Shown here in pieces: positions 216 to 35,535 of a stretch of DNA of 40,923 nucleotides. Both the position numbers and the translations under genes were made by a program. How positions within the stretch are numbered: the first letter of the stretch is position 1; each line of letters begins with the position of its first letter. The notes beneath the pieces were generated by a model, which made no database searches, was not told the origin of the DNA, and saw nothing but the letters and a program-made list of their open reading frames with translations. The DNA comes from a virus: the IMG/VR virus record IMGVR_UViG_3300047496_000087, positions 1 to 40,923 of that record; one strand, 5' to 3'.

Positions 216-1196
216 TTAGTAAAATTCTATAACAAGGCAATAACCATTACCGCCGGTTCCGCCTGCACCAGAGTTGGTACCATTAAGTGAGCCGCCCCCT
301 CCGCCTCCGCCACCACCTGGTACAGCACCGTTACCACCAGTTCCAGCTGCAGCACCAGACTTTTGGCCACCCCCGCCACCTCCACCAGTACCTCCGGTCA
401 TTAACCCACCTGAAGTGACAAGTCCAGGGTTGCCATTACCACCTCCAATAGTCCCAGATTCAACACCACCAGAACCACCAGAAGTTATAGTTGCGCCACC
501 ATTTGAATATGTTACAGCACCACCATTGCCACCAGCTCTTTCTGTTCCAGAGTCAGCACCACCACCACCGCCTCCTCCAGTTGGTAGGAATGATTCAAAA
601 AGTCCACGTACAAGAGTTCCTACTGAATAACCATTTGTTCCAGCGGTTACTGTACCATTACCAGAGAGAACAACCGTACTTGTGGCTATATTAGAACCAA
701 AAACAGAAGGAGCAGTTCCCGTAGTAGTTGTTCCATTAATACCAGCCTTACCTCCGCTTGCACCACGATCAGCTGCTCCTAAATTTCCTAAACTAGTAAT
801 AGAACCATTTGATCCTGCTATACCATTATTATTATCTGCTGTTCTAGCTGCGCCGCCGCCTCCTCCAGCCCCAATAGTCACCGTTTCTCCGCCGCTATTA
901 AAAAAATAAGAAGGACCAGTATAACTGGTAAAATTACCTGCTTGGCCACCACCTCCACCACCAGATGTAGTTGATGTAGCTCTACGTCCAGATCCACCAC
1001 CTCCACCAGAACTATAAAGAAGAACAGTAATTGTTTTAGAATTGGCATTCTTAGTAAAGGTTCCACTACCGGTAAATGCGGTAACAAGATAGCCATTGGC
1101 GCCTGTTCCAAAGGAAACAGTACTCAGAGCACCGGAAGTTGTTTGTAGATAACCATCTGATAAGGATGCTGTATTCAAACCGGTATTAACTGACAT
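216..1196 (-). CDS. Glycine-rich (polyglycine-run) virion protein, paralog A; putative fibre-tip/adhesin protein
   Basis: 326-aa ORF with an AAGGAGA RBS 4 nt upstream of the ATG. Motifs: FTGSGTFTKN, GGGGGSGRR, ETVTIGAGGGGG, and C-terminal GGGGGGGGSLNGTNSGAGGTGGNGYCLVIEFY shared with the paralogs. Confidence 0.8.
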   Translation of the reverse strand: MSVNTGLNTASLSDGYLQTTSGALSTVSFGTGANGYLVTAFTGSGTFTKNANSKTITVLLYSSGGGGGSGRRATSTTSGGGGGGQAGNFTSYTGPSYFFNSGGETVTIGAGGGGGAARTADNNNGIAGSNGSITSLGNLGAADRGASGGKAGINGTTTTGTAPSVFGSNIATSTVVLSGNGTVTAGTNGYSVGTLVRGLFESFLPTGGGGGGGADSGTERAGGNGGAVTYSNGGATITSGGSGGVESGTIGGGNGNPGLVTSGGLMTGGTGGGGGGGQKSGAAAGTGGNGAVPGGGGGGGGGSLNGTNSGAGGTGGNGYCLVIEFY

Positions 1197-1205
1197 ACAT
1201 TCTCC

Positions 1206-2150
1206 TTAAAAGTATTCTATTACAACACAATACCCATTACCACCTGTTCCGCCAGCACCGGAATTGGCTCCATCGACAGATCCGCCTCCGCCACCACCTC
1301 CTCCACCAGGAGTACCACCATTACCACCTTTGCCAGCTTTTACAGCTTTATAACCGCCTCCTCCACCACCGCCACCTCCGCCAGGTATAAAGCCATGTTG
1401 AAAAGTTCCTCCAGCGCCTCCATTACCTGCATCACTATCTAACGCTCCTGAAGTTCCGCCAGACACCATGACCGTTCCTGCGGGATTTGAGACCGGGCCG
1501 CCCGTTCCACCCGTTCGTCCAGTGGTAGTATTGCCACCACCACCAGCCGCTCCTCCTCCAGGAAATAAATAAGAAAAATAGTTATTATTAGTATTAGGAT
1601 TACTCCCTGAATTTCCATCTATTAAACTAGAAGCGTTACCAACAATAGTTAAGCTCGCCGATTGATTAAAACACGAACTATAATATTGAGCTGATGCAGA
1701 AGTAGATCCACTTGAAGTTGTTCCACCAGTACCATAACTAACAGATGTTGGCGCCGCACCAATATTACCCAAAGTAGTAATAACACTAGGGTTACCAGCT
1801 ATTCCATTGGTATCTACAGAAGTTTGAGCTCCGCCGCCACCTCCGCCAGCTCCAATAGTTACTGTTTCTGATGATGCAAAGAAATAAGATGGTGCAGTAT
1901 AATAAACAACATTTCCTGGAGATCCACCACCACCAGAAGCAGATGCAGCAGTTGTACCTTGTCGTCCAGAACCTCCGCCACCACCTGAATTCCATAATAT
2001 GACATCGACGACCGTCGTTGATGAGTTCTTAGTCCAGGTTCCACTACCGCTAAAGGTTGTCACAATTGCGGGCATACGAGAAAGGAGGGAACCGCCCCCT
2101 CCCCAAAATGCTCCGCCTTCAATGTATCCAGGATTTTGTATAATATCCAT
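1206..2150 (-). CDS. Glycine-rich (polyglycine-run) virion protein, paralog B
   Basis: 314-aa ORF with a TAGGAG RBS overlapping the stop of the upstream fibre gene. Same motif order as paralog A, ending GGGGGGGGSVDGANSGAGGTGGNGYCVVIEYF. Confidence 0.8.
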   Translation of the reverse strand: MDIIQNPGYIEGGAFWGGGGSLLSRMPAIVTTFSGSGTWTKNSSTTVVDVILWNSGGGGGSGRQGTTAASASGGGGSPGNVVYYTAPSYFFASSETVTIGAGGGGGGAQTSVDTNGIAGNPSVITTLGNIGAAPTSVSYGTGGTTSSGSTSASAQYYSSCFNQSASLTIVGNASSLIDGNSGSNPNTNNNYFSYLFPGGGAAGGGGNTTTGRTGGTGGPVSNPAGTVMVSGGTSGALDSDAGNGGAGGTFQHGFIPGGGGGGGGGGYKAVKAGKGGNGGTPGGGGGGGGGSVDGANSGAGGTGGNGYCVVIEYF

Positions 2151-2157
2151 GATGCTC

Positions 2158-3093
2158 CTATACGTATGTTGGTGAGCCTTGGCAGCTCAATACGTTCCAC
2201 TCATTGTTAGCTACAACACAGACCATTCTTACTGAGTCACGTACTGCAGATGACTGCAGATATCCTGTAGCCCCACTGGTTGTATTCACCGTACCAAAAT
2301 GGATCTGTTGTCCAGATGCCTGAGTTATCTTCCAACCAAGGGCAGTATTGATACCTGTTACTTCTAAAATTGATCCTGTTGCTGCAGTAGTAGGAAGTGC
2401 TAATAATAGAGCAGATGCCTTGTTGCATATATAACCATTATTAACTGCAGCTGTTTGGTCAGCAGTAATCACGGTCCAGGTGAACCCGCCTGCTGCAGCT
2501 TGGAAACTTGGGGCTGTACCTGATGCGTTTGCAGTAAGCACATAGCCAGCGGTCCCTGTGACAGTAGATATCACCCCTGTAGAACTGGTGACAAGAGCAC
2601 CTTCAGCGAATGCTGGTATCTTTATACCTGCTGATCCAGCCTGCAGGTTAGTCACGCTTGCACCCGTTGTACTGCCCAAAGTGACCGTCTTCACGGCTGA
2701 GCCTGTGGCAATATTTACCGTGGTAGCGCTGGAATCATTGGAGATTGCCAGTTGGCCTGTTCCTGAATTGACGGTCAAAGAACCATTGGTTGAGGTGACA
2801 TTGAGTGCTCCTGACCCAGACTGAAGGGTAGATGCGCTGGTAGAATTTGAACTACCAAAGGTGCTTGCATGGGCCGTAGAAGTAGAGCCGACGGTTATCC
2901 CGCCGGTTCCACAATCTATTGCTACAGAACTTGTACCTGTACCGTTACCAATACTGATGGTACGTCCAGCCGAAGCCGACGTACCAATTGATATACTATT
3001 ATCAGTCGCGTCTGTACCTGCTCCAAATGTCCCTCCAGTGAAGGACACATTGGCAGCAGAAACGCTATTGTTCCAACTATTGCGGGTTGCCAT
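2158..3093 (-). CDS. Tail fibre protein (311 aa)
   Basis: The N-terminus MATRNSWNNSVSAANVSFTGGTFGAGTD... is homologous to the N-terminus of 37083..38825. The C-terminus NNGYICNKASALLLALP...GWKITQASGQQIHFG...VRMVCV...WNVLSCQGSPTYV is homologous to the C-terminus of 3103..5802. The sequence is rich in Ser/Thr/Gly beta-repeats. Confidence 0.8.
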   Translation of the reverse strand: MATRNSWNNSVSAANVSFTGGTFGAGTDATDNSISIGTSASAGRTISIGNGTGTSSVAIDCGTGGITVGSTSTAHASTFGSSNSTSASTLQSGSGALNVTSTNGSLTVNSGTGQLAISNDSSATTVNIATGSAVKTVTLGSTTGASVTNLQAGSAGIKIPAFAEGALVTSSTGVISTVTGTAGYVLTANASGTAPSFQAAAGGFTWTVITADQTAAVNNGYICNKASALLLALPTTAATGSILEVTGINTALGWKITQASGQQIHFGTVNTTSGATGYLQSSAVRDSVRMVCVVANNEWNVLSCQGSPTYV

Positions 3094-3102
3094 AGTAACT
3101 CC

Positions 3103-5802
3103 TTACACCAATGTTATATTGCCTTGGCTATTGAGTACCATCCACCGCGTAGAAGCACCAGAAACTACGCAAACCATCTCTAATGAGTCGCCAATTGCTG
3201 TTGCCTCAAGATAACCACCAACACCAACCGTTGTTGTCGCATTACCAAACAATATTGCTTGGTTAGCATTCTGTGCTATACGCCATCCAACAGCGGTATT
3301 AAGGTTGCAAATGCGTATAAGATCACCAATCGCACCAGATGCTGGCAATGTCATAGTCAGAAGACCTGCCTTATTGGCGATATAACCATTACCTGCAACA
3401 AGCGATGCGTTGACTGTCGTTACTGCCCATGCAAGTTCACCAGGAACTGCTTGCCATGTTGGTATGCTCGAAGAACCGGTTGAGGTGAGCACAAATCCAG
3501 ACGTACCAATATTAGTATCTGCCGCTTGGAATGCACCCGTTGTGGTTGTACCACCAACTATAGGAGCGTAAGCCGTTGTAGAAGTTACCCCGGTTCCACC
3601 ACCAGCGACCACAGCAGTACCGAAGGTCGGGTTAGAAGATGACCCCTGGGAGATGTAGGGTATTCCAGAGGTTGCTGATGGAGCGACAGAAGCAACTGCA
3701 TTAGAAGCTCCAGCTACAACAGTGCCATATTGTGTAATAGTTGATGCAGTAACTGCACTGGTTCCGTTACCGGTAAGCACACCAGTAAGTGTTGCAGCGC
3801 CAGTACCACCATTTTTAACAGCTAAGGTACCGGTAAGCGTTTCTGTTGTACTTGCACCTGAGAAGGTCAATCCTGTCGTACCACCAGTAAAGGTGAATGC
3901 TGCACCCGTAAGAGCACCACCACTGTCACCAGTGATAGATATAGAACTTGCTGCAGGAGCTGCCCATACTGGCAATGCGCCAGCACCAGCTGATGTAAGT
4001 ACGTTACCAGAAGATCCTAGACCAGATACGTTTTGGAATGCACCAGTTGCTGTAGTACCAGCAGCTATAACTGAGTAGGCAGTAAATGTTGTATTACCTG
4101 TTCCACCACCAGCTACTACAGCGGTTCCAAATGCTGGATCAGCGGCTGCACCTTGTGATACCAAGGGCACACCAGATGTTGCACTTGTAGCAACTGCGGT
4201 TACCGCTGCTGTTGTTCCTGCACCAACAAGTACCGCGTGATTAGTTTGTGTACCAAGTTTAGCTTTTAGATCATCAGGTGTGACAATCTTATTGGTTACC
4301 GTACCAGCTATGGTCTCAGCATTGGTAGCTAAAGTAGCACCACCAAGTTGTGAGGTAGTAGCTTGCGTTACAGTAGCGCCAAGGGTACCAGCACCGGTAG
4401 CATAGGTGATAGATCCGTCGGATGATGCCAATGTAGCGAAAACTGGGTCAGCAGCAGAAGATCCCACGAGAACCTGACCGTTGGTACCTACTGTAAGTTG
4501 CGTCAATCCTGTGCCAGATTTACCCACTTGTACCGCATGGTTGTTTGTACCGCCAACGTTATAGGTTACGGTAGAGCCAGAACCAGAAGTTGATATGTTT
4601 GCACCGCCAGCCATGGTAATTGCACCAGAAGATGCAACTGCGGTACCAGAATCGGTAACAAAGCTTGATGCGCCACCTCCAAAGAATTCATTGAAGGCAA
4701 TTGGGTCAGTACCCATGGTAGCGACCGTATCAACTTGAATCCAGAAGGTATTGGCATTTACTGTACCATTGTTTACTGGAACCAAATCACCAGGATGTAT
4801 CTCAGAAGCTTGATCATAGTCAGTAGCGCGAGTGAGCACCCACGCAACAGCACCACTACCAATGGTAGTCAGGGTATAGATACCATTTTGAGCTTGCGTT
4901 GATTGATTCTTAACGAGGATACGTGAGTTAATGGGAGGCGTTGTACCATCAAGGGTGAACAATGCCAGAGCACCGGCATTAGTTAAAGTAGCCCCAACAC
5001 CAGCTGCACCATTGGCATACGTAGCATTGAGATTGGCTGTTGTTGCAGCATAAACTGCCGTTTTAAACGTAATACCTGCAACAAGGGAATCAGCGTAGGT
5101 TTTGTTAACCCCGTCAGTTCCTGCCACAGGAGCATTTACAATCGTGATAGATGTGACTGTTGGTGTTGCGGTAAATACCGGGTCTGTTCCTGTCATACCA
5201 GAAAGTACCGTACCAGAAGCACCCACTGCCAAGGAGTTTACCCCCGTCGTCCCGGTTCCTAAAAGAACAGAGTGATTGGTAGTCCCTGCCACATTAACAA
5301 TTGGTGCCGTTGCAGTTCCGGTAATGGATATGTTAGTACCCGCATTGACTGAGGTTACAGCACCAGCAGCAGAAAGTGACTGATAGGTTGGAGCTACACC
5401 AGCGCCGTTAGAGGTCAGGACTTGGTTTGCCGTGCCCGTTGCTGTTGTAACAAGGCGCGTACCATCATAGTAAATGGTACCATCAGTAGTTGCAAAAGAA
5501 GAAGCATTAGTACCACCATTAGCTACAGGAAGGACACCAGTTACATCAGTTGTTAAATTAAGAGACCCAAAAGCAGGGTTTGCTCCTGTTGCTCCACGTA
5601 ATACTTGTCCCGTTGTACCAACGGTTATAGATGTTAAACCAGTAGTTCCCGTACCTACCTGTACGGCATGGTCTGTCGTACCATTGACGTTTACTATAGG
5701 ATCGGTTGCTGTACCTGTTATAGATATGTTTGCACCGGCATTAACAGAGGTTACCGTTCCACCACCACCGCCAGATGTCTTGAGTATACCACTTTGGCTC
5801 AT
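3103..5802 (-). CDS. Long tail fibre protein (899 aa) with internal repeats
   Basis: Repeated modules VTSVNAG.NISITGTAT.PIVNV.GTT.H.V..GTGTTG...G..G.VL.G..G.DP.F. Also repeated G.VLTS.G....P.W motifs and LATNAETIAGTVTNKIVTPDDLKAKL. A central domain of the type ...RILVKNQSTQAQNGIYTL...W.LTRATDYD... is typical of phage fibres. Confidence 0.85.
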   Translation of the reverse strand: MSQSGILKTSGGGGGTVTSVNAGANISITGTATDPIVNVNGTTDHAVQVGTGTTGLTSITVGTTGQVLRGATGANPAFGSLNLTTDVTGVLPVANGGTNASSFATTDGTIYYDGTRLVTTATGTANQVLTSNGAGVAPTYQSLSAAGAVTSVNAGTNISITGTATAPIVNVAGTTNHSVLLGTGTTGVNSLAVGASGTVLSGMTGTDPVFTATPTVTSITIVNAPVAGTDGVNKTYADSLVAGITFKTAVYAATTANLNATYANGAAGVGATLTNAGALALFTLDGTTPPINSRILVKNQSTQAQNGIYTLTTIGSGAVAWVLTRATDYDQASEIHPGDLVPVNNGTVNANTFWIQVDTVATMGTDPIAFNEFFGGGASSFVTDSGTAVASSGAITMAGGANISTSGSGSTVTYNVGGTNNHAVQVGKSGTGLTQLTVGTNGQVLVGSSAADPVFATLASSDGSITYATGAGTLGATVTQATTSQLGGATLATNAETIAGTVTNKIVTPDDLKAKLGTQTNHAVLVGAGTTAAVTAVATSATSGVPLVSQGAAADPAFGTAVVAGGGTGNTTFTAYSVIAAGTTATGAFQNVSGLGSSGNVLTSAGAGALPVWAAPAASSISITGDSGGALTGAAFTFTGGTTGLTFSGASTTETLTGTLAVKNGGTGAATLTGVLTGNGTSAVTASTITQYGTVVAGASNAVASVAPSATSGIPYISQGSSSNPTFGTAVVAGGGTGVTSTTAYAPIVGGTTTTGAFQAADTNIGTSGFVLTSTGSSSIPTWQAVPGELAWAVTTVNASLVAGNGYIANKAGLLTMTLPASGAIGDLIRICNLNTAVGWRIAQNANQAILFGNATTTVGVGGYLEATAIGDSLEMVCVVSGASTRWMVLNSQGNITLV

Positions 5803-6601: not shown

Positions 6602-7195
6602 CTAGTTTATATCGCGCCATGTCTTTCCAGTTTTAATAGAATGAAGTGTCGTCCTAGATATATTAAAATCTTTACATATACGTTTCATCATCACGTCCAT
6701 AGATAAAAGTTTTTTTATCTCTTTAACTTGATCAATACTTAACTTTTCAACTTTATGTCTGTTCTTAGATAACTTATCACGTTGATTATCAAGAGCATTT
6801 CCTAACCATAAATGTTCAGGATTTGTACATGATGGATTGTCACAAGTATGCAGCACCCACAATCCATTAGGTATTTCACCTTTATAAATCATGTAGCTCG
6901 CCCTATGTGCCATCACTTCTTTACCTCTAAAAGTTAAACATCCATACTTCATTTTTACTTTTTTACAGCCATTCCAATTCCAGCATCCATCTTGCTTTAT
7001 AACAAACTTATTAAAAGACTTTTCGAGCTCATATATCGTATCTTGAGACGCCCATTTTTCTCTTAATTTTGTAACACTAATTGTTCCCATAGTTTTCATT
7101 TGGCATGGTTTAGAGCAAAATCTTGAAGTATTTATCTTGTCACTTCTCACTAAATATTCCGTAGAACATTGATCGCAATTTTTAGAAAGTTTCAT
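6602..7195 (-). CDS. Free-standing HNH homing-type endonuclease (HNH_3-like) with a C-terminal HTH
   Basis: Motif HRASYMIYKGEIPNGLWVLHTCDNPSCTNPEHLWLGNALDNQRD, plus an N-terminal CxxC...C..C region and C-terminal ISRTTLHSIKTGKTWRDI. The gene is visibly AT-rich compared with the flanking fibre genes. Confidence 0.85.
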   Translation of the reverse strand: MKLSKNCDQCSTEYLVRSDKINTSRFCSKPCQMKTMGTISVTKLREKWASQDTIYELEKSFNKFVIKQDGCWNWNGCKKVKMKYGCLTFRGKEVMAHRASYMIYKGEIPNGLWVLHTCDNPSCTNPEHLWLGNALDNQRDKLSKNRHKVEKLSIDQVKEIKKLLSMDVMMKRICKDFNISRTTLHSIKTGKTWRDIN

Positions 7196-18283: not shown

Positions 18284-18691
18284 TTAACGTAGTGTACAAC
18301 GCATGTTGGTGATCCAAAGGTCATTTAAGATCCTTGGAACCTCAGCAAACGTGTACCCAACTGTAATGTTTTGAGCCAATGCATCAGAGTAGATCGCAGG
18401 ACGGTAAATGAACTGCGCTGAATAGTTATCTTGTTCAACACAAGCCAATGATTCCATACCTTGTACAAAAACGTTATACACGTTATTACCAAGAGCAGAA
18501 GCATTAGGAGTGATAGAAGCAACAGAAGACACCATAAAGCGAACGTTGTTAACCGCGCCCCACTCACTTTCCGTAGCTTTTGCGCCACCTTGTGGATAGT
18601 TCCACTGTGGAATAAAGTTAGGCAAGTTATTGAGGTCTTTAACCAAGTCAGTGTGCGCTAATGCGAGGTACGCATTACGAACAGGAGCTGT
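18284..18691 (-). CDS. Major capsid protein, exon 3 (135 codons plus stop)
   Basis: Begins TAPVRNAYLALAHTDLVKDLNNLPNF... directly after the intron's terminal G, in frame with track ORF 18284..18646. The C-terminal part looks like an HK97-fold MCP (...EWGAVNNVRFMVSS...). Confidence 0.85.
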   Translation of the reverse strand, partial: TAPVRNAYLALAHTDLVKDLNNLPNFIPQWNYPQGGAKATESEWGAVNNVRFMVSSVASITPNASALGNNVYNVFVQGMESLACVEQDNYSAQFIYRPAIYSDALAQNITVGYTFAEVPRILNDLWITNMRCTLR

Positions 18692-18899
18692 CAGTCTGTT
18701 ACTTTTATGACCTATTTCTAGGCGGGGAAGCTCTTCGGCATTCCCTCACGGAGTTTCCTTCCGTGGTCAGACTATCGCATACCCTTTCGGGCCTTTCTCA
18801 CTTAGTCGTTCAGGCTGCTTGCGCTTGCCCCTTGTTACCATAGCTTGCGCTTTAGGCTTCCAAGTCAATTAGAGAAAGTTTTACTTCGGCACATAGTTT
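18692..18899 (-). ncRNA. Group I self-splicing intron 2 (208 nt, no ORF) in the major capsid gene
   Basis: P1: exon UUCGGU pairs with intron GCCGAA, with U.G at the splice site. P3: UUUCUC/GAGAAA. P7: GACUA/UAGUC. P8: GCCC-GAAA-GGGU. P9: CACGGA...UCCGUG. A further hairpin is CCUA-GAAA-UAGG. The intron ends ...AACAGACUG. Confidence 0.85.
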
Positions 18900-19130
18900 A
18901 CCGAAACGATCCATACCAACTTGTGAGCCAAGGATCATCCATGCGTTGTTTGTCAGCAACGTAGAAGTCACTTCGTCCACATCTGAAAGTGCTAGATCTG
19001 TAGGCAAGTCCCCATTTGTACCGCCTGTGCAGTTGTAGATCGATGCTGTCGATGCAAGCATGTCTCTGGTCAACTGATCCTCGGTCATACGGAGACTTAA
19101 TCCAAGCAGCTCTGCAGTTTCATTTAATAC
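18900..19130 (-). CDS. Major capsid protein, exon 2 (77 codons)
   Basis: VLNETAELLGLSLRMTEDQL...GSQVGMDRFG. Both junctions are phase 0 and the length is 231 nt. Confidence 0.85.
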
Positions 19131-19341
19131 CATTCTGTTACTTTCATGACTGCCGGATCAATCCAGTCAGCGGGAAAATCTCTTCGGATTCTCCTCTTCA
19201 TGTTGCCATGAAGATCAGACTATCGCATCCCATTTCTGGGTTTTCTCACTTAGTCGTTCACGCTGCAATTACGCTTGCGCCTTGTCGTCCGCGAGGGAGT
19301 TCCAAGTCAATCAGAGAAAATTTATAGACCCCATACATTTT
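19131..19341 (-). ncRNA. Group I self-splicing intron 1 (211 nt, no ORF) in the major capsid gene
   Basis: P1: exon GACCCU pairs with intron GGGGUC, with U.G at the splice site. P3: UUUCUC/GAGAAA. P7: GACUA/UAGUC. P8: CCCA-GAAA-UGGG. P9: UCUUCAUG-GCAA-CAUGAAGA. The intron ends ...AACAGAAUG. Confidence 0.85.
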
Positions 19342-19653
19342 AGGGTCTTGGTTTTGCAATGTTACTTGCTGGTTAATTGCAATGTACTGGCCATAGAATG
19401 ACATGGTAGCATCGATATCAACACGAGTCAAAGGCGTTGCTGGTGGGATAGCGCCGCTGGGCCCGAGAGGAACCGGTGCGGTTGGCAATCTGTCATAGCG
19501 CGCCATACGTAGGGTACGGCCACCTTTGCTTGGCAAACGTTTAGTAACAGCACCAAGCTTCATGATGAGGTTTGGTGTGCTTACTGACAATAGAACATCG
19601 TCCATTGTCTGTTGCACTGGCGCAGGCAGCAGGGAAGTAGTAGTGATCATCAC
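19342..19653 (-). CDS. Major capsid protein, exon 1 (104 codons)
   Basis: AGGAG RBS 6 nt upstream of the ATG. Translation: MMITTTSLLPAP...RMARYDRLPTAPVPL...SFYGQYIAINQQVTLQNQDP. It resembles the N-terminal part of the HK97-fold MCP family (N4-gp56-like). Confidence 0.85.
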
Positions 19654-22128: not shown

Positions 22129-24162
22129 TCATTGTCTAGGGCTAGTTTTGAGTGGCTTTGGAGCTTGCACCTGAGCCTGCTCTGCAACCTTCAATGAGTT
22201 AGCCATATTCAAGAGTCTTTCGAGATGTCCAAGGTCCATATCTTCAATTTCTTTAAGTATCTTGATCTTCTCAAGAAGCGCTTGCTCATCATTCTTATTA
22301 GCCTCAGCCAACTTCTGTACGGCAAGTGCACGATTCTCTTCAACACGTGAAGTGCGTTCATAGTAAAGCCCTTGGTCTGCCATTGAGCGTGAATGAGCCA
22401 ATTCAGTACGCGCCTGGAGTTCTTGCATCTCAATCTGAGCACGCTGTTGTTCCATTTGCTGAGCTGCTTGTTGCTGTTGCTCCATAGCCTCAATGATCTT
22501 GTTTTTGTTTTGAATAGTACACGCGTCAATAAGCGATGAGTCTGGTATTGGCACACCCAGTTCTTTAAGCTGCATAAGCTGTGCAAACTGCATCTGTTTT
22601 TGTGATTCGGTATTGAATCCCATCTCAACCATACAATGGTACTTACCAAATGCCTTGTTATAGAACAATGGCGCTGGCTCTTCACCTTCAAGCAGGTTCT
22701 TTATCTTGCCCGGTGTGTAGTTGTTCATTACAACCTTCATCAGCACCTCACCAAGGAGATTCTGTGAATAATCCAGGCGGTCAAAGAGAGGTTGGAGGGT
22801 AGTTAGGCCAGCACCTTGTCTTAAGGCAGATAATATGCCCGCTTTATCATCAAGCGCTGAGCCCATGAGCTCTTCGTTAATACCCGATACAAGGTTAAGT
22901 TCCTTTGAGAACGTATCTTGTAGCTGAAAGAATGAAGGCGGCACTTGAGGAGGTTGAATTGGCAAGATATCAGTCATTTGTGCTTCTTCTTTGATCGGAA
23001 TCACACGTCCTTGACCTGTCTGGAACAGATGCTTTACATCAACAACAGCATTTTCCTTGAATATCCAGCCAGAATTGACTTGGGACTCAAGCATATCAGC
23101 TGAAAGTATTATGCGTCTGTTAAGTAGTACTTGTGGATCTCTCAGTGATCGACAAATACCCTGAATGCGGCTATAAAAGTACGGCATCATTGGGTTATAA
23201 TAGCCAATTACTGGAACGAATGGATAGGTATCTACACCAAGTGGATTAGGACCATCATAAAATACAACATTTTGAATCATAATAGCCATGCGAACAGTTG
23301 GTATATCTTGATCAACAAGAGTAACTTCAGGATACAACTCTAAAAAGAGCTTAACTTCTTCAGGATCCTTATCAGTTGCCTCAAATGTTTCACCTGTTAC
23401 CGTATCGACAAGCAACTTTTGCTTACGATAGGCACGGTAATAGTATTCATCATAAGCTACTTTGTTCTGTTGCGTCTGACCATAAGACTCTGGCATGTAC
23501 TGAAATCTACCATCTCTGCCCATACCTGATGGATTACCAGGAAGGGACATGATTTCTTCATATTTATCTGGCATAAGAGCTGCAGCTGCTGAGTGACTTA
23601 GGTAGGACCTACGCCATACAAAGTTGCAATCACTAAGATCAGGTTTTCTAAAATAGGGATCGATAAAAAAACTATTATAAGAACAGTTATCCACCTTAAT
23701 ATCGCCGTTAACGGGATCATTCTTGTAGTCCATATATACGTGGAGTAAATTCATACCAGTAACACAGGCGCCTTGATGGAATGCATCTGATATCGTTTCA
23801 TAAACGCCTTCGCGCTTGTAGATACCAAGGAGTATCTTTGTCCACTGGTCAGCCGTTGCCTGGTCACCATTCTCGAGAGGAACTACAATGGATGACTTAC
23901 GGTTACGTCGTTGATAACCAGAGACCATGTTACATAAAGGTCGAACGCGGTTAAAGTACCAAGAGTTGCCGTTGGTGGTAGACATTGATTGGTTCATCTC
24001 TGCCATCAAGGATGTATCACCAGCCTCTAACCGCGTATCAAGCGTTGCCTCAGTCCAATAGATCTGCCATATGGATTGGTTGGCAGTATAATCGGCATCT
24101 ATCTTTCTTTTAATATCGCTATACTGCCCCGTGGGCAATGAATCTAACGGCCTCATTAACAT
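22129..24162 (-). CDS. Portal protein (677 aa)
   Basis: Size, position (after terL, before scaffold and MCP) and a C-terminal coiled-coil Q/E-rich tail are typical of podovirus portal proteins. Confidence 0.75.
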   Translation of the reverse strand: MLMRPLDSLPTGQYSDIKRKIDADYTANQSIWQIYWTEATLDTRLEAGDTSLMAEMNQSMSTTNGNSWYFNRVRPLCNMVSGYQRRNRKSSIVVPLENGDQATADQWTKILLGIYKREGVYETISDAFHQGACVTGMNLLHVYMDYKNDPVNGDIKVDNCSYNSFFIDPYFRKPDLSDCNFVWRRSYLSHSAAAALMPDKYEEIMSLPGNPSGMGRDGRFQYMPESYGQTQQNKVAYDEYYYRAYRKQKLLVDTVTGETFEATDKDPEEVKLFLELYPEVTLVDQDIPTVRMAIMIQNVVFYDGPNPLGVDTYPFVPVIGYYNPMMPYFYSRIQGICRSLRDPQVLLNRRIILSADMLESQVNSGWIFKENAVVDVKHLFQTGQGRVIPIKEEAQMTDILPIQPPQVPPSFFQLQDTFSKELNLVSGINEELMGSALDDKAGILSALRQGAGLTTLQPLFDRLDYSQNLLGEVLMKVVMNNYTPGKIKNLLEGEEPAPLFYNKAFGKYHCMVEMGFNTESQKQMQFAQLMQLKELGVPIPDSSLIDACTIQNKNKIIEAMEQQQQAAQQMEQQRAQIEMQELQARTELAHSRSMADQGLYYERTSRVEENRALAVQKLAEANKNDEQALLEKIKILKEIEDMDLGHLERLLNMANSLKVAEQAQVQAPKPLKTSPRQ

Positions 24163-24189
24163 AGCTTGATCCTTTTATAAAGAGTCGAA

Positions 24190-24591
24190 TTAGTTTGCTG
24201 AGGTTGATGTTAGCACAGCTCCCGCATCATATAAAGAAATTAGCTTTCTAAAGGTATCAAAGAACATTTCATAGTCATAACTACCATCCTGACAAAAGAA
24301 CTCAATAATACATGACCTTGTGAGCTTACAAGAGAATATAGAAGCGTATCCCTTTTCAGCTGTAGCCTTATAGCCAAACACAATATCATGGAACTGATGC
24401 TCGTTTATCCTTGTATATTCAAAGTCAGCGTTTAAAGTTGCAAGGTAGAGCGATCCCCACATCACACTTGGCTGCTCAATAAAGTTACTGCACTCATCTA
24501 CAACAATGGCATAGTTATATGGCCCTTGTAGATTATCTGCGTGGAGGAGACTAAAGAAACATAAGGCGCTAAACAGAAGTTGTTTGATCAT
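24190..24591 (-). CDS. Secreted protein (133 aa) with an N-terminal signal peptide, function unknown
   Basis: MIKQLLFSALCFFSLLHA|DN... has a hydrophobic h-region followed by an AxA-like cleavage site. It sits between terL and portal. Confidence 0.55.
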   Translation of the reverse strand: MIKQLLFSALCFFSLLHADNLQGPYNYAIVVDECSNFIEQPSVMWGSLYLATLNADFEYTRINEHQFHDIVFGYKATAEKGYASIFSCKLTRSCIIEFFCQDGSYDYEMFFDTFRKLISLYDAGAVLTSTSAN

Positions 24592-24872
24592 TTCAAGCCT
24601 TTCAACTGCTCAGTTACTGTCTTTTTGAAATCTTCGAACTGTTCATCAAGGCTAATGATGTTATCACTATTTATTTTAAGTGCTTCTCTTGTAAGATCAT
24701 TTATCTTATCATAACATAACGTTTTATCGGCCATTTGATCTACGGATAAAGCTGCTAAAGTAAATTTATCAACTAATTGTCTAGTAGTAGAAGAAGTTAT
24801 GGTTACTAACTCTTTCATAACTTCCATTTGCTTCTCAAGTAATTCAATACGTTCTTGCAATGTCTTTTCCAT
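24588..24872 (-). CDS. Coiled-coil protein (94 aa), function unknown
   Basis: ORF overlapping both neighbouring genes (by one base at its start, four at its stop). Confidence 0.55.
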   Translation of the reverse strand: MEKTLQERIELLEKQMEVMKELVTITSSTTRQLVDKFTLAALSVDQMADKTLCYDKINDLTREALKINSDNIISLDEQFEDFKKTVTEQLKGLK

Positions 24873-26242
24873 TATCTCATCCTATTGTATTTATCATCCT
24901 GCCTAAACATATAAGGCAGTTGTTGTTTGTTACCATATAACGCTTCCGCTTTCTTTCTCTCAAAGTCTTCAGGACTCATACCTCGCTTCGCTTTATGAAG
25001 ACTTAAGCACATGTAACGAAATGCATCTGCATAGTTACTTGCCCAGTTATGCAATGGCTTATTCTGATAAACAGACTTAACCTCGTCCCATACTTTGCGA
25101 TAGTTCTCAAGAGCATTAATCAGTGATCTACACTTCTCTGCATCTATCCACATCTTTGGCATGTGTGTCCATGCATTCTCAATGCCTTCTATAATGCCTA
25201 CTTGCTCAATAAGCTTAAAGTCTATACCTAGTTGTCGCGCTTTCTCATAACGTGTGACTGCACCACCGCCCCATTCTCGTACTTTAATGTCATGAGGAGC
25301 AAAGTGTGCTCCGTATTTATAGGGTCTGTCCTGTATTACCTTAGCATAATGATCCAAGCCAACGTTGTTATTGCTGTAACAGTCTATAACACGCAGCACC
25401 GTACCATCACCAACCTGCTGATAGAATATGATCGTTGTAGCATCATTCACTCCAATATCCCATGCGGTATACACAAGAAGCCCCGGCTCCCAATTAACTG
25501 AACATATCTGGCCCTTGAGCTTCAACTGATCCAACATTGGGCCATAATATGACCCTTGAATTCCGCGCTCAAACGACGTTTCATACTCTTGAAGATAAAG
25601 CCCCTCATCCATCTCTGCACGCTCACGTGCCAAGACTTCATCAGGTATATGATGGATATCTGATGCACATTGCTTGATCACTTTCCAGTCTGGTAGTTCT
25701 AGAGCAACTTTATAGAGTTGCCATAGATGGTTCTTGCCACGCGGAGTTGATACTATCAAACACCATCCACCATTAGCGGCGAGTATAGGACGTATGTATG
25801 AAAAGATCTCCGGTGGCATCAAAGCATACTCAGAAAGAATGACAGCGTAAGGGTTAGTACCCACCAAGCTAGAGTCATAGGAATCACCTCCAATACATTG
25901 CAGTATAGAACCATTCTTGAATCTAATCTTCATCTCAGATTGATTGATGGCTTCTATAAGCATTGGGGGAAGAAAATCAAGGAACTTAGTGCCATCAATA
26001 GCAATAGCATCGAATATAGCCTTCTTAGCCTGTGCATAGGTGGGCAGTACATAGAACACCAAGCAAGTCTTCTTAATGCATTGGCGTATAGCAAGGTTCC
26101 ATCCAAGTACGTCTTTGCCAGCACGTCGTGGAGCTATGTAGAGTACACGCTTGCAGTTATCTTCTTCAATAGCTTTAAAAACCGGCTCCTGATACCAGCG
26201 CAACTTAAAGCGATCGAGTGCTACTTGGACTTCAACGTTCAT
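24872..26242 (-). CDS. terL: Terminase large subunit (456 aa)
   Basis: N-terminal ATPase region RWYQEPVF...LYIAPRRAGKD (Walker A-like). ...AVILSEYA is Walker B-like. The C-terminal nuclease region TAWDIGVNDATTIIFYQ...APHD looks RNase H-like. Confidence 0.85.
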   Translation of the reverse strand: MNVEVQVALDRFKLRWYQEPVFKAIEEDNCKRVLYIAPRRAGKDVLGWNLAIRQCIKKTCLVFYVLPTYAQAKKAIFDAIAIDGTKFLDFLPPMLIEAINQSEMKIRFKNGSILQCIGGDSYDSSLVGTNPYAVILSEYALMPPEIFSYIRPILAANGGWCLIVSTPRGKNHLWQLYKVALELPDWKVIKQCASDIHHIPDEVLARERAEMDEGLYLQEYETSFERGIQGSYYGPMLDQLKLKGQICSVNWEPGLLVYTAWDIGVNDATTIIFYQQVGDGTVLRVIDCYSNNNVGLDHYAKVIQDRPYKYGAHFAPHDIKVREWGGGAVTRYEKARQLGIDFKLIEQVGIIEGIENAWTHMPKMWIDAEKCRSLINALENYRKVWDEVKSVYQNKPLHNWASNYADAFRYMCLSLHKAKRGMSPEDFERKKAEALYGNKQQLPYMFRQDDKYNRMR

Positions 26243-26460
26243 TATTCCATATCCCCATCAATTACCATGCAAGGCCAACACCAAGTACCAGCAGGATCTT
26301 CTTTCAAAGCACACGCTTCACCCCCTGCATTAGGATATTCTTTTAATATATTACACGATTCTTTAATGAACTTTATGCGATATTCCTTTAGAGACTTGAT
26401 CTGATCTCTTTCGATTTTCTCATAGTCTACTTCAACGTTCACCCAATCTCCCCATCCCAT
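26242..26460 (-). CDS. Small protein (72 aa), function unknown
   Basis: ORF coupled to the terL start (TAATG overlap). Confidence 0.5.
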   Translation of the reverse strand: MGWGDWVNVEVDYEKIERDQIKSLKEYRIKFIKESCNILKEYPNAGGEACALKEDPAGTWCWPCMVIDGDME

Positions 26461-26681
26461 CTAATATCTGGCTTCTCAACTTCTTCGTGCTTACACTCAT
26501 ATCCTATAACAGCACGCAAGCATCTCATGCCAACAGTCTCTTTGCAAGTCTCACAGTTCTCATTAAGATCGCATAAAGTAACTAAACTCATATGAAAGAA
26601 TCCCTCATACTTCTTATTCAGTTCTTGTAGTGTTGGGCGTAGCTCATTGGCTAACTGTTCCAACAAATGGTCATCGTTCAT
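26439..26681 (-). CDS. Small Cys-rich protein (80 aa from the MNDDHLLEQ start)
   Basis: I prefer the internal ATG, which follows GGAGAG and gives a shorter overlap with the upstream gene. Contains C..N.NC.TC...C...C. Confidence 0.45.
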   Translation of the reverse strand: MNDDHLLEQLANELRPTLQELNKKYEGFFHMSLVTLCDLNENCETCKETVGMRCLRAVIGYECKHEEVEKPDIRWDGEIG

Positions 26682-26898
26682 TGTCTCTCCACGATTTTTT
26701 AATTCTATCCAAATCATTCATAAGATTTTTATTAAATGGAATAGAGCAACTTTTACAAGATTCAACTTTATTCATTAAACCAATTAATGCTGCTCTTAAA
26801 GCATAACTCTCTTGATGCTGCTTGTGCCTACTATCTTTGTATTTATGACGAAGATCATTCAATTCTTTATTAAGAGAATCTATTGTATCTTTATTCAT
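26671..26898 (-). CDS. Small protein (75 aa), function unknown
   Basis: Its ATG overlaps the stop of the 16-codon remnant ORF (TTATGA). Confidence 0.5.
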   Translation of the reverse strand: MNKDTIDSLNKELNDLRHKYKDSRHKQHQESYALRAALIGLMNKVESCKSCSIPFNKNLMNDLDRIKKSWRDNER

Positions 26899-26945
26899 AA
26901 CACCCCCAAGATATCAGACTCTCTCACAAGTTGATGATCGTTCAT
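26895..26945 (-). pseudogene. Duplicated 3' end of the GroES-like gene: a 16-codon remnant ORF MNDHQLVRESDILGVL*
   Basis: About 48 nt are roughly 75-80% identical to 27139-27188, which encodes ...DNHQLVRESDILGVL* at the end of the GroES-like gene. ATGA overlaps occur at both ends. Confidence 0.7.
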
Positions 26946-27142
26946 GGATAACTCCTATTAAATGCCTCTTTAAAAGCGGGACAATCTTTTGAACAATCTA
27001 TGCATTCAGGACAACCGCCTTCTTTAAATATAAATCCACAGTCACCTGATGCAAGATCCTTAAGCCATTCAACCTCTAGTGAATGCCAAACACCTTCCGC
27101 AGTTTTAATCTTAATTATTTCTTTTTCTTTGTGATTAATCAT
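26942..27142 (-). CDS. Small Cys-rich protein (66 aa), bracketed by the duplicated GroES-like 3' ends
   Basis: MINHKEKE...SGDCGFIFKEGGCPECIDCSKDCPAF contains six Cys. Its start overlaps the GroES-like stop (CTATGA). Confidence 0.6.
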   Translation of the reverse strand: MINHKEKEIIKIKTAEGVWHSLEVEWLKDLASGDCGFIFKEGGCPECIDCSKDCPAFKEAFNRSYP

Positions 27143-27390
27143 AGCACACCCAATATATCAGACTCTCTAACCAACTGATGATTATCACTAAGGTCATGCA
27201 TCATGTAATTCTTCGTAATGTACACCATATCGCCAATCTTAAGCGTTGTCTTGGTTGGTACATTGATTACCTTAGCTAGCTGTGATTCTTCTTTCTCTGA
27301 CAAGAATATACCACTTGGTGTGACATCTGATACTACAAGGCGTTCTATAACAACCCAGTTATTGAGCGGGATTAGTTTTGTTAGATCCAT
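27139..27390 (-). CDS. GroES/Cpn10-like co-chaperonin (83 aa)
   Basis: LIPLNNWVVIERLVVSDVTPSGIFLSEKEE...LKIGDMVYIT.......LSDNHQLVRESDILGVL follows the Cpn10 pattern (lkPl.drVlv...t.sGI.l......GD.V......l.re.DILav). TAAGGA RBS. Confidence 0.65.
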   Translation of the reverse strand: MDLTKLIPLNNWVVIERLVVSDVTPSGIFLSEKEESQLAKVINVPTKTTLKIGDMVYITKNYMMHDLSDNHQLVRESDILGVL

Positions 27391-27625
27391 ATTGTTCCTT
27401 AAATTTTATATGATCTTCATAAAGAAGAGCCAAACAAGTTGCAATAGAATAAGAATAGCCCTTAATGAACTCTTCTCGTTCGGCCATAGTTGCACATGAC
27501 TTTATAATACCAATTATTTCTTCGGCACACTTCTCTGAATCTGGCCTTGGATAGTTTTCATTAAGAAATGCTTCTACTTCAGGACTGCACCTGCCCAAAT
27601 CAACCCATTCACGCCTTAGGTCCAT
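27359..27625 (-). CDS. Small protein (88 aa), function unknown
   Basis: Start chosen at the ATG preceded by AAAGGACAAC. The track start is a TTG. Confidence 0.5.
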   Translation of the reverse strand: MDLRREWVDLGRCSPEVEAFLNENYPRPDSEKCAEEIIGIIKSCATMAEREEFIKGYSYSIATCLALLYEDHIKFKEQYGSNKTNPAQ

Positions 27626-27878
27626 GTTGTCCTTTCTTTGGTAATTGAGCAGCCTGTACAAGTGGCTTATTCTCTAATGTCTTTATGATATCCTTAAGGG
27701 TCTGAATCTCTCTCTCTTTCTCATGCATATGGTACTCAAGGATGGCCTTAGACTCCTGTATCTCTGAAGTCAGAGTCAACACCAAGCAATCAAGCTCACG
27801 TGTTCTCTTTTGTAATTCTGTCACCTGTAGTTGCAGAATTGTATTGTCTTGCTTACAGTTACCAAAATGAAATAACAT
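27609..27878 (-). CDS. Coiled-coil protein (89 aa), function unknown
   Basis: I prefer the internal ATG preceded by TAAGGAAG. Confidence 0.45.
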   Translation of the reverse strand: MLFHFGNCKQDNTILQLQVTELQKRTRELDCLVLTLTSEIQESKAILEYHMHEKEREIQTLKDIIKTLENKPLVQAAQLPKKGQHGPKA

Positions 27879-27894
27879 AATCTTCCTTAAGCTA

Positions 27895-28188
27895 CTAAAC
27901 TGCATAAGTTTGCTCTTTATTTAATTTAGCATCGCAAGTGCATTTATCATGAAACTGATTAAGCAATGCCGTTAATTCATTAACCCTATTACTATGATCA
28001 ATAACCAATTGCTTAAGGACATCAATCTGAATCCAAAGACTTTCATTAGATTCATGTAAATGTTTATTGTAAAGATTCGTAGAAACATTAGCTCTCTTAA
28101 ACTCTTCAAAATCTTTCTGAGTATATATTTTATGTATATTTCTAAGTTGTTGTTCAGCCAATACTTTTTCTTCATCACTCAATTGCAT
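27895..28188 (-). CDS. Coiled-coil protein (97 aa), function unknown
   Basis: ATG start preceded by GGGAGAG. Confidence 0.5.
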   Translation of the reverse strand: MQLSDEEKVLAEQQLRNIHKIYTQKDFEEFKRANVSTNLYNKHLHESNESLWIQIDVLKQLVIDHSNRVNELTALLNQFHDKCTCDAKLNKEQTYAV

Positions 28189-28705
28189 CAATCTCTCCCT
28201 TCAACTGCTCAGGCGTAATTACTTCCGGCTTGCTTATAACGATGTTAAACGTTGTAGGAACATTCTTATCATCAGTGCTCATATCTTTATGATACTTGTT
28301 AATAAAATGCCATTCAGGATCATATAAATGAAGATCCCTAAGTATCATAGTCTCACTAAACTTTTTATGAACAGCACCCATTCTACGCTTTGTAGCTAAG
28401 TGTAATTTAACATTTGTGTAAGCAGACTTTAATTCTGGGTATTCATCAATCCAGTTATTTAGAGTCTGATAGGGCAACTTATAATGCATGCAGAATTGGT
28501 TAATTTCTAACGACTCTTCACGGTCTACCCATCTATACAGAGTGTGGATCAATCTCTGTCTCCATTCAGGGTCTTTAGGCTTCCTTAAACAGTGTAAATC
28601 ATGCTCAGAAGCAATATATGTATCAGGAATTGCTATCTCTAAGGGATCAATATAAGATTGGGGGGTTTTGGGAGAAGCTTTTACAACAGCTTGTTTAGCC
28701 ATCAT
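28175..28705 (-). CDS. HTH protein resembling a terminase small subunit (176 aa)
   Basis: ...SLEINQFCMHYKLPYQTLNNWIDEYPELKSAYTNVKLHLATKRRMG... resembles the HTH region of small terminases (fc...gi...t...W....peF..a). It lies about 2 kb from terL. Confidence 0.45.
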   Translation of the reverse strand: MMAKQAVVKASPKTPQSYIDPLEIAIPDTYIASEHDLHCLRKPKDPEWRQRLIHTLYRWVDREESLEINQFCMHYKLPYQTLNNWIDEYPELKSAYTNVKLHLATKRRMGAVHKKFSETMILRDLHLYDPEWHFINKYHKDMSTDDKNVPTTFNIVISKPEVITPEQLKGEIDAIE

Positions 28706-32743: not shown

Positions 32744-33391
32744 CTATTCCTTCCAAAACTTAATAGCGTTCAAACATTGCTTGACCGTAAGATCTGAAAG
32801 TTCTTTGACCTTGTTATATTCAAGAACTTTATCTTGAGAAAACTTAGGATTTTTGCTTTTGTTGATAAGATCGACTAATTTATCTAATTGTTCTTGATTG
32901 CAAAGAGCGTCTTGGCTTGATGGTTCTGCATACTTAGTCTTTTTCTCTTCAATATGATTTTGCTCCCCTTGGCCATCATCATCCTCATCCTCATCACGAG
33001 CGAATCCACAAAGAGATAATACACCCTCTTTCTTCATGTAAGTATTGGCTGATCCAATTCCTTGGTTGCCAGGCATCTCAGTAACAATATACGCTTCATC
33101 CTCTACCCATTGACCAGTAGGAGCATGGATAAGCCTTGTTACCATTATCTCCCTACCATCTTCTAATATTCTTTTACCATGCCATATCTTTACTCTGTGA
33201 GCCCTTAATCCGGGCCGGAGAGCAGCATAAATATCTTTTAATTTGGCATATTTATATTTCTTGTGACTATTCTCAGAAGTTTTCTCTACACCATCCCATA
33301 CTTCTTCAGCATTAAGTAGGGCTGCCATCAAGGCCCGTACATCATCAGACATATGCGGTGAGTTGCTTGGGCTAAATTCAGAAGGATTCAT
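32744..33391 (-). CDS. erf: ERF-family single-strand annealing recombinase (215 aa)
   Basis: KYKYAKLKDIYAALRPGL and GIGSANTYMKKEGVLSLCGFARDEDEDDDG parallel P22 Erf KYKYRSCEDILEGVKPLL and TGATSSYARKYCLNGLFGIDD. I prefer the ATG at 33391 (GAGGAAAAAT RBS). The alternative start is 33403. Confidence 0.7.
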   Translation of the reverse strand: MNPSEFSPSNSPHMSDDVRALMAALLNAEEVWDGVEKTSENSHKKYKYAKLKDIYAALRPGLRAHRVKIWHGKRILEDGREIMVTRLIHAPTGQWVEDEAYIVTEMPGNQGIGSANTYMKKEGVLSLCGFARDEDEDDDGQGEQNHIEEKKTKYAEPSSQDALCNQEQLDKLVDLINKSKNPKFSQDKVLEYNKVKELSDLTVKQCLNAIKFWKE

Positions 33392-33770
33392 ATTTTTCCT
33401 CATTGTTTATAATATGATCCATAACTTCCTTCATCTTATCGCTAGGAATACCCGTTTCTTGCATGGCTTGATATATCTTAGTGAAATCTCTTTTTAGATC
33501 TCTAAAAGTACATAGCCTTCTATCTAAAAATTCAAAGGCTGATCCAAAAGATAATATAAGAGCTGTATGCTGTTTAACCTTCTTATTCAATGATTCTTCA
33601 TGAGAAGGAGATCTATTTTCTTTGAGCTTGTTTATTTCTTGTGTAAGTTCATTTATTTTTTGTGCTTTCGCTACAACAATCTTATCAAGATGATTAACAG
33701 CATCTTGAATTCTACTATGATCCTGTTCAAAAACAGATTGACCGGCCAATAACTTATTTACAAACTTCAT
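33378..33770 (-). CDS. Early helical protein (130 aa), function unknown
   Basis: ORF with a GAGGAAATTAAAG RBS. Confidence 0.55.
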   Translation of the reverse strand: MKFVNKLLAGQSVFEQDHSRIQDAVNHLDKIVVAKAQKINELTQEINKLKENRSPSHEESLNKKVKQHTALILSFGSAFEFLDRRLCTFRDLKRDFTKIYQAMQETGIPSDKMKEVMDHIINNEEKYESF

Positions 33771-34851: not shown

Positions 34852-35535
34852 ATGGAACTCGCTCCACAAGAATACCGTTCACTTGAAATCAATCAGATAA
34901 TGATGGCTCTCGCTAAAGCTCAGGGTGCATACAAACCATTGGTAGCCAATGAAAAGGGCCCCAGAGGTATGTATGCCAACCTTGCGGCTATGATTGCATC
35001 AACTAGAGAAGCTTTATCAGGAAATGGTTTAGCATTCTACCAGTATGATGAGATCACCGACGATGGCGCTGGCGCCATTCTCATGAAGTCTATTATAGGC
35101 CATGAGTCAGGACAGTGGCTCAGTTCCATTGCCAGAATCGTTAAAATGGAAACAGAACGTGACACAGGCAGAATTGTTGAAGTCATTAGACGTAGACAGG
35201 CCATGATGTTGCTAGGAATTGCCCCATCAGAGAACGATCCTACCTTCTTTGATGACGATGGTGAGGAGCAAGCAGAATCGTTCGTTATAAGCCAAGTTCG
35301 TAAGCCTCGTACTACCAAGCCAGAAGTTAATAGAAATGATGTAGTCAATCCAGATCAGTATCAAGAATTGTTGATTGAATTGGAAGGATATGAAGATATC
35401 GCCAAAGATATTATGCAATGCTATAATATAGAAACCTTAGCCGATCTTCCACGAGAAGAATATCACAAGTCACTTATGAAAATACGTCGCATTAAGCGAA
35501 CACAAGAAGAGTACGAAAAACAGAAAAGTAGATAA
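34852..35535 (+). CDS. Second, divergent ERF-like recombinase (227 aa)
   Basis: INQIMMALAKAQGAY...GMYANLAAMIASTREALSGNGLAFYQ...IIGHESGQWL...RRRQAMMLLGIAPSENDPTFFDDDGEE follows the ERF motif order. It lacks the G.a.tY signature, so the call is weaker. Confidence 0.5.
   Translation: MELAPQEYRSLEINQIMMALAKAQGAYKPLVANEKGPRGMYANLAAMIASTREALSGNGLAFYQYDEITDDGAGAILMKSIIGHESGQWLSSIARIVKMETERDTGRIVEVIRRRQAMMLLGIAPSENDPTFFDDDGEEQAESFVISQVRKPRTTKPEVNRNDVVNPDQYQELLIELEGYEDIAKDIMQCYNIETLADLPREEYHKSLMKIRRIKRTQEEYEKQKSR

Follow-up and report, generated by a model that had tools for sequence, protein, structure and literature searches.

Evidence for compact group I introns without ORFs in the major capsid gene of a podovirus-like phage

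The capsid gene and its two inserts

The window, by which we mean the whole stretch of 40,923 nt that was analysed, belongs to a tailed, podovirus-like phage of ~41 kb, which has a P22-type portal, TerL and a capsid protein of the N4-gp56 family. The capsid gene lies on the minus strand and was found to be made up of three exons, with two inserts (211 and 208 nt) between them. Exon 1 (19342..19650, minus strand; 103 aa), placed by homologue alignment, starts with an ATG at 19650 that is preceded by GGAG. Its protein begins MITTTSLLPAPVQQ and closes QVTLQNQDP, and its 3′ end in the DNA reads ...CAAGACCCT. Past 19342 the frame of exon 1 enters a tail of 28 codons, KMYGVYKFSLIDLELPRGRQGASVIAA followed by a stop, which no homologue resembles. 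The reading frame picks up again at 19130 with GTATTAAATGAA (VLNE) in phase 0, that is, at a codon boundary. A sequence-only reading of this DNA had described an exon frame that ends in a junk tail and resumes 211 nt further on in phase 0, and our analysis found the same, on the minus strand.

The second interruption is of the same kind. Exon 2 (18900..19130, minus strand; 77 aa, VLNETAELLG...MDRFG) ends with ...GSQVGMDRFG at 18900 and is followed by a second tail, KLCAEVKLSLIDLEA and a stop, which is similar to the first one. The frame restarts at 18691 as TAPVRNAYLALAH... and reaches its stop at 18284, so that exon 3 (18284..18691, minus strand) encodes 135 aa, TAPVRNAY...RCTLR, plus the stop. 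Joined in silico, the three exons give a protein of 315 aa from the ATG at 19650. The length of 316 aa that had been given for the spliced protein in the sequence-only reading is obtained only when an upstream GTG is taken as the start. The predicted spliced junctions are ...CAAGACCCT joined to GTATTAAATG... for the first insert and ...CGTTTCGGT joined to ACAGCTCCTG... for the second one.

Searches with the spliced protein revealed a match to TIGR04387 (N4-gp56 family major capsid protein) with 132 bits against an NCBIfam cutoff of 60. The match spans residues 3-311 of the protein and positions 1-321 of the 324 profile positions, and it agrees with the N4-gp56-like family that the sequence-only reading had named for this gene. 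The protein also scored 27.7 bits with PF25209 (cutoff 27) and matched the major head protein phrog_1357, and a PDB sequence search gave no match.

In a large protein collection, 2004 homologues were found. The best of them are uninterrupted, have a length of 314-316 aa and are at most 82% identical to the spliced protein, at 100% coverage. Alignment with 20 uninterrupted homologues (61-82% identity) is gapless across both QNQDP/VLNE and DRFG/TAPVR, where the slash marks the insertion point. Both junctions lie inside the most conserved blocks, with N100, V104, L105, G180 and T181 invariant in this alignment. The alignment of homologues across DP/VL, which had been proposed as a check, thus came out in favour of the junction. 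Nothing in the homologues aligns with the translation of the insert. Of the 80 capsid loci in IMG/VR that are most closely related, 78 lack the insert, and the empty-site DNA of relatives, e.g. AACCAAGACCCTGTATTAAAC, is identical to the spliced junction of the window; the empty-site sequence for the second insertion point is GATCGTTTCGGTACAGCTCCT. Shifting both boundaries of the first insert by 1 nt would still leave the protein as DPVL, and the U.G pair at the 5′ site together with a G at the 3′ end is obtained only with the proposed boundaries.

Some other genes of the window were noted in passing. There are two genes for Erf-like single-strand annealing proteins on opposite strands, at 32744..33403 (minus) and 34852..35535 (plus) (phrog_155 / phrog_2324); sizeable ORFs such as the latter are few on the plus strand. 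Three consecutive ORFs of 326, 314 and 311 aa at 216..3093 (minus strand) are possibly paralogous tail-fibre-like genes.

Structure and covariation of the inserts

A search with the Rfam models, among them RF00028 (Intron_gpI, for group I introns in general), at gathering threshold gave no match in the whole window, and Rfam in E-value mode gave only a spurious mir-194 match. When Rfam was run on 19100-19370 (271 nt), the stretch on which the sequence-only reading had advised RF00028, no intron was returned at E≤10, and the only match was a spurious one to queA (E=7). Both introns stay below the RF00028 gathering score of 50 bits. Intron 2 is aligned by the model with 24.7 bits (E=6e-4), a sub-threshold score, end to end over P1, P3-P9, J8/7 and P7. 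The miss is a limit of the general model and not a structural criterion. The sequence-only reading was to be given up if no covariance-model hit was found and homologues aligned to the translated intron as well; RF00028 was indeed blank, but the homologues do not align in that way.

Since RF00028 is nearly blind to both introns, relatives were sought by blastn and with a core pattern made from conserved blocks (ATTGACTTGGAA ... GACTAA ... GCGATAGTC). The pattern has 2 matches in the window against 0 expected, and it was found in at least 120 stretches of IMG/VR. We then used a family covariance model with a 155-position core, built from 12 related introns of other contigs with the window sequences excluded. 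With filters off, this model gave exactly two matches in the whole window: intron 1 with 166.1 bits (E=3.5e-36; core 19325..19173) and intron 2 with 145.7 bits. The next best match in the window had 13.6 bits, and no further intron was found there by this model. The ORF-poor gap at 24000-28300 contains small ORFs and no split genes. Among 137 family hits, the score of intron 1 ranks fourth.

Intron 1 occupies 19131..19341 on the minus strand (211 nt, no ORF), and all positions given below are on that strand. The coordinates, P1, P3, P7, P8, P9 and the terminal G proposed in the sequence-only reading were all recovered, and P4, P5, P6, P9.1, P9.2 and P10 were identified in addition. P1, originally drawn as GACCCU with intron nt 10-15 (GGGGUC), was lengthened to 7 bp, AGACCCU (19348..19342) with GGGGUCU (19332..19326). 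Its U.G wobble, U 19342 with G 19332, is located at the 5′ splice site, exactly at the junction that is set independently by protein homology. The P10 guide GUAU (19336..19333) pairs with GUAU of exon 2 (19130..19127) as G.U, U-A, A-U and U.G, which makes 4 bp with two wobbles. J1/3 is AUAAA (19325..19321) and leads into P3, formed by UUUUCUC (19320..19314) and GAGAAAA (19247..19241). P4, CUUG (19306..19303) with CAAG (19284..19281), encloses the P5 hairpin UCC-CUCGC-GGA (19298..19288), whose stem has just 3 bp. The P6/P6a hairpin GCGC-AA-GC-GUAAUU-GC-A-GCGU follows at 19280..19260.

P7 is formed by A[C]GACUA (19257..19251), with a bulged C at 19256, and UAGUCU (19222..19217). Its core pairing is GACUA (19255..19251) with UAGUC (19222..19218), it makes a pseudoknot with P3, and, judging from solved group I introns, it would be the helix that binds guanosine. 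J7/3 is AGU only (19250..19248), after which the 3′ strand of P3 follows. P8 is CCCA-GAAA-UGGG (19240..19229) and J8/7 is AUGCGA (19228..19223). The stretch made up of J8/7 and the 3′ strand of P7 (19217..19228) corresponds to the place where the RF00028 consensus AAGAUAUAGUC aligns in the paralogous intron 2.

P9, UCUUCAUG-GCAA-CAUGAAGA (19214..19195), has a GNRA loop, and P9.1, GGAGAAUC-CGAAGA-GAUUUUCC (19194..19173), has a CGAAGA loop that is conserved. P9.2, UGACUG...CAGUCA (19169..19147), is bigger than in most family members (CCUA-GAAA-UAGG). The intron finishes with the 3′ tail UGAAAGUAACAGAAU plus the terminal G at 19131 (19146..19131), reading ...AAAGUAACAGAAUG with G last, and AAAGUAACAG within this tail is invariant in the 14 full-length members that were aligned. 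P2, P5abc, P7.1/P7.2 and an ORF are absent from intron 1; no endonuclease ORF of its own was found in the 211 nt, which hold only the read-through of exon 1.

The 14 full-length members were aligned with MAFFT and folded by RNAalifold, with P7 added as a pseudoknot. The folding yielded P1, P3, P4, P5, P6, P8, P9, P9.1 and P9.2. In this alignment, 96% of the pair cells hold standard pairs (39-47% in slid controls), both sides change in 40 of the 56 pairs (12-19 in slid controls), and 0 of 500 shuffles reached the observed values. A model-based alignment of the 137 hits (124 distinct) gave 96.8% paired against 41-52% when slid, with 37 of 39 pairs covarying; this 124-member alignment is fitted to the model, and the MAFFT-based count is free of that problem. 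By helix, covariation was seen in all seven pairs of P3, all six of P6, all four of P8 and six out of seven of P9. The core pairs of P4 and P7 were fixed by the pattern with which the members were collected and hold no covariation information, and the closing pair of P7 covaries from A-U to G-C.

P1 changes in step with the host exon where other contigs have an intron at this capsid site, with GAUCCU and GGGAUC in contig L030 and GACGCU and GGCGUC in the L009 group (junction NQDA/IVK), a comparison in which P1 boundaries of other contigs were set by a pairing heuristic and which is circular unless protein homology fixes the junction independently. P10 has 7 bp in L030. In the family as a whole, P10 of at least 3 bp is present in 33% of the members, compared with a mean of 9% and a maximum of 20% in permuted controls.

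Our analysis showed that intron 1 has the anatomy of a group I intron and belongs to a covarying family, and that its removal restores the reading frame. The spliced protein, the covarying RNA family and the occurrence of this family in other split phage genes support the reading of the insert as a group I intron. We therefore take 19341..19131, with a probability of about 0.93, for a compact group I intron that has no ORF and lies within the major capsid gene; its splicing would follow the chemistry established for group I introns. The claim of the sequence-only reading that a group I intron of 211 nt without an ORF interrupts this gene is thus backed by structure, protein junction and family covariation alike.

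In the late pre-mRNA, the intron would fold into a group I core in which P3-P8 and P4-P6 are the two domains, joined by the P3/P7 pseudoknot, with P9, P9.1 and P9.2 at the periphery; in P1, the seven bases at the end of the exon would pair with the internal guide. An exogenous guanosine held in P7 would attack the phosphate that follows the U (19342) in the U.G pair. The terminal G (19131) would then take the same site, P10 would align exon 2, and the 3′-OH of exon 1 would attack the 3′ splice site, with ...GACCCU/GUAUUA... as the expected ligation product. Removal of intron 2 (18899..18692) in the same manner would give an mRNA for the intact 315-aa capsid protein.

The insert might instead be a dead intron relic, or some other repeated insertion, and the capsid gene an unspliced pseudogene of a defective phage. 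That intron 1 is missed by RF00028, that its P5 is as short as 3 bp and that its P9.2 deviates from the family norm would be in line with this. But all core helices are intact, few of the 137 hits score higher with the family model, and the U.G wobble, the terminal G and P10 have all been kept. Moreover, the three exons contain neither a frameshift nor a stop and are 82% identical to intact homologues, the phage, with its portal, TerL and tail genes, looks intact in the rest of its genome, and the same sequence is found in independent assemblies. We consider a relic improbable.

It would be more improbable still that the insert stays in the RNA, with ribosomes bypassing the 211 nt or with the capsid made from three separately translated fragments. 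The last three bases of the intron are AUG in frame with exon 2, and an ORF MVLNETAE... does exist mechanically. This AUG has no Shine-Dalgarno sequence upstream, however, and exon 3 has no plausible start. Because members of the family keep the terminal ...ACAGAAUG in whichever gene they are inserted, the AUG is a feature of the intron and not a start codon. Known ribosomal bypassing spans ~50 nt, against 211 nt here, and a covarying group I structure would be explained by neither bypassing nor separate fragments.

Two copies, the wider family and its spread

The group I intron reading extends to the second insert. Intron 2 (18692..18899, minus strand; 208 nt, no ORF) splits the same gene at DRFG/TAPVR, and its P1 is GUUUCGGU with GCCGAAGU. 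Introns 1 and 2 are 62% identical, and their shared core is 76% identical over 117 nt. Intragenic duplication was rejected as their origin, each being closer to introns in other contigs. The nearest relative of intron 1 is an intron at another site of the capsid homologue in L025 (85% over 155 nt), and that of intron 2 is a same-site intron in L109 (80% over 209 nt). This indicates separate acquisitions and no recent duplication.

With two introns that share a core in one gene, an assembler could have misplaced intron-like repeats into the capsid gene. Such repeats do trouble assemblers, as is shown by a Logan contig from this phage, which breaks off close to intron 2. A misassembly would not, however, put both insertions at exact codon boundaries with each P1 guide complementary to its own upstream exon. 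In addition, an independent Logan assembly has the same arrangement with intron 1 in the same place, and orthologous introns are found at the same capsid sites in other contigs (L030, L109). We give an assembly artefact next to no weight.

The Logan contig of the same phage that stops in the capsid gene is ERR9963794_85070 (L205); it ends at about intron 2, with the end of the locus near 11357. This suggests that short-read assemblies break at the repeated core of the introns.

In a blastn search of phage records, matches were confined to the two inserts, with none to the coding sequence, and in every annotated record the match separates two halves of one split gene. In MW202674 (L001, 16569..18084), two CDS annotated as P22 coat protein flank the intron and no intron feature is annotated. 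In Roseobacter phage CRP-118 (L002), an RNR gene that is split by the same intron family is annotated as two CDS, gp44 and gp45, again without an intron feature. In Erwinia phage phiEa1H (L124), the match lies between part A and part B of the DNA polymerase. In Desulfovibrio phage 7757 (L003, OR395405, 2502..3359), whose record is without annotation, an intron of the same family is located in an 807-aa ORF, which by eye was taken for a putative nrdD-like gene; this intron carries an HNH-like ORF of 217 aa after P9.1. As side observations, a hypothetical protein has been called within the intron of MW202674, and the 807-aa ORF of Desulfovibrio phage 7757 seems by eye to hold an intein-like insert.

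In IMG/VR, introns of this family divide many N4-gp56-family capsid genes at a variety of residues, with as many as ~5 exons per gene. Five contigs (L030, L056, L115, L014 and L052) have capsid homologues in three to five pieces with several introns each, the split residues being about 78, 88, 103/104, 145, 180, 196-227 and 261-275. N4-gp56-family capsid genes appear to be hot spots for the intron family. The closest insert-bearing capsid relatives of the window, L159/L160 (81% identity), have a single intron of the family (3411..3571), which scores 142.8 bits. It sits at a third site, towards the 3′ end of the gene, and the two sites of the window are empty there. Such a sporadic distribution is typical of mobile introns and suggests horizontal spread of intron 1.

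As to how an ORF-less intron would spread, we can only speculate that it may do so by recombination during co-infection, or with the help of a free-standing endonuclease acting in trans (collaborative homing). PHROGs and Pfam searches revealed no homing endonuclease among the neighbours of the capsid gene. The window has a free-standing HNH_3 gene of 197 aa at 6602..7195 (minus strand) among tail-region genes (PF13392 at 36.7 bits, cutoff 24.8), which might act in trans on the intron sites. Its protein is not similar to the intron-borne endonuclease of L003, and no link was found between the gene, 12 kb away, and the capsid insertion sites. By eye, the HNH_3 gene looks A+T-rich compared with its flanks.

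Between them, gene callers and RF00028 leave the capsid gene of this phage as three meaningless ORFs. As capsid genes are widely used as phage markers, introns that go unrecognised in them distort gene calls, protein clustering and phylogenies. Our finding extends the list of genes with two ribozyme introns to a late structural gene that is essential in a small podovirus-like phage, and an intron family this abundant and compact could serve as a minimal model ribozyme. The current understanding of group I introns is unchanged by it, and its main practical value is for annotation.

Comparison with known introns

Both group I introns that are small and lack an ORF and introns that lie in the capsid genes of phages have been published before. 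In literature of which our coverage was incomplete, we found no published description of the present intron family, nor one of N4-gp56-type capsid genes with introns, and no account of this family was found in the literature on CRP-118 or roseophage introns. In the gut Jug jumbo phages, essential genes are broken up by small (~206 nt) group I introns without an ORF, and of 76 predicted introns, 37 had their splicing confirmed by metatranscriptome reads (PMC12880540). The introns of the window (211 and 208 nt) resemble them in size, in the lack of an ORF, in the presence of several copies per genome or gene and in hitting essential genes. The hosts differ, the Jug phages being phages of 360-402 kb from Bacteroides/Phocaeicola with split terL and nrdD, compared with a ~41 kb phage here; this comparison was made by description only.

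Group I introns have been reported in the major capsid genes of crAss-like phages of the Delta and Zeta groups (PMC7886860). Both there and here, the major capsid gene of a phage is split into several exons by group I introns. The crAss-like introns were recognised through the endonuclease domains that they encode, whereas those of the window are ORF-less, and the capsid protein of the window (N4-gp56 / TIGR04387, 315 aa) differs from that of crAss-like phages.

In collaborative homing, ORF-less phage introns are combined with free-standing endonucleases (reviewed in PMC3984707). Common points are an intron without an ORF, a patchy distribution (78 of 80 relatives without the insert) and a free-standing HNH_3 gene in the genome. 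In the described cases the endonuclease gene adjoins the target gene, whereas the HNH_3 gene of the window lies 12 kb from the capsid gene.

In T7-like phages (PhiI/W31, cyanophage Pf-WMP3; PMC3428280), the DNA polymerase genes have introns of subgroup IA2, to which phage group I introns usually belong. This subgroup is defined by P7.1 and P7.2, joined by G-U-A, between P7 and P3′ (PMC3428280). Like these introns, intron 1 is inserted after a U in a conserved phage gene and ends in G. It resembles the polymerase intron of phiEa1H in the lack of P2 and in the order of elements, and GGCGUC-UAUAAAU-P3, J3/4 AAUU, P7 GACUA with UAGUC and the P8 GNRA hairpin are near-identical in the two. The P9 of phiEa1H, ...CAUGGCAACAUG..., is also nearly the same as that of intron 1. 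The family model matches the phiEa1H intron locally only, with 30.3 bits over P8-J8/7-P7′-P9. Unlike intron 1, the polymerase IA2 introns have an ORF for an HNH endonuclease within P6, and their host gene is a polymerase gene and not a late structural gene. Between P7 and P3′, the phiEa1H intron has GCCGAAAGGC-GUA-GGGCC..., compared with AGU only in intron 1. Intron 1 was not assigned to IA2, as P7.1/P7.2 are absent and AGU alone separates GACUA of P7 from GAGAAAA of P3′. Heterogeneity among phage introns called IA2 has been noted before (PMC11878797).

It is conceivable, though we hold it somewhat doubtful, that the two capsid introns represent a distinct and so far unclassified lineage of compact phage group I introns. 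Such a lineage would comprise introns of ~200 nt that are IA2-like without P2, P7.1/P7.2 or an ORF, have a conserved CGAAGA L9.1 loop and a AAAGUAACAG 3′ tail, and have exact matches to their core pattern in at least 120 IMG/VR stretches. It would lie repeatedly in conserved sites of structural (N4-gp56-type and P22-type coat) and nucleotide-metabolism genes, spread without an endonuclease of its own and be routinely missed by RF00028. The IA2 introns of T7-like phage polymerase genes are the closest characterised relatives of intron 1, which would work in the manner of an IA2-type phage intron and looks like a stripped-down relative of it.
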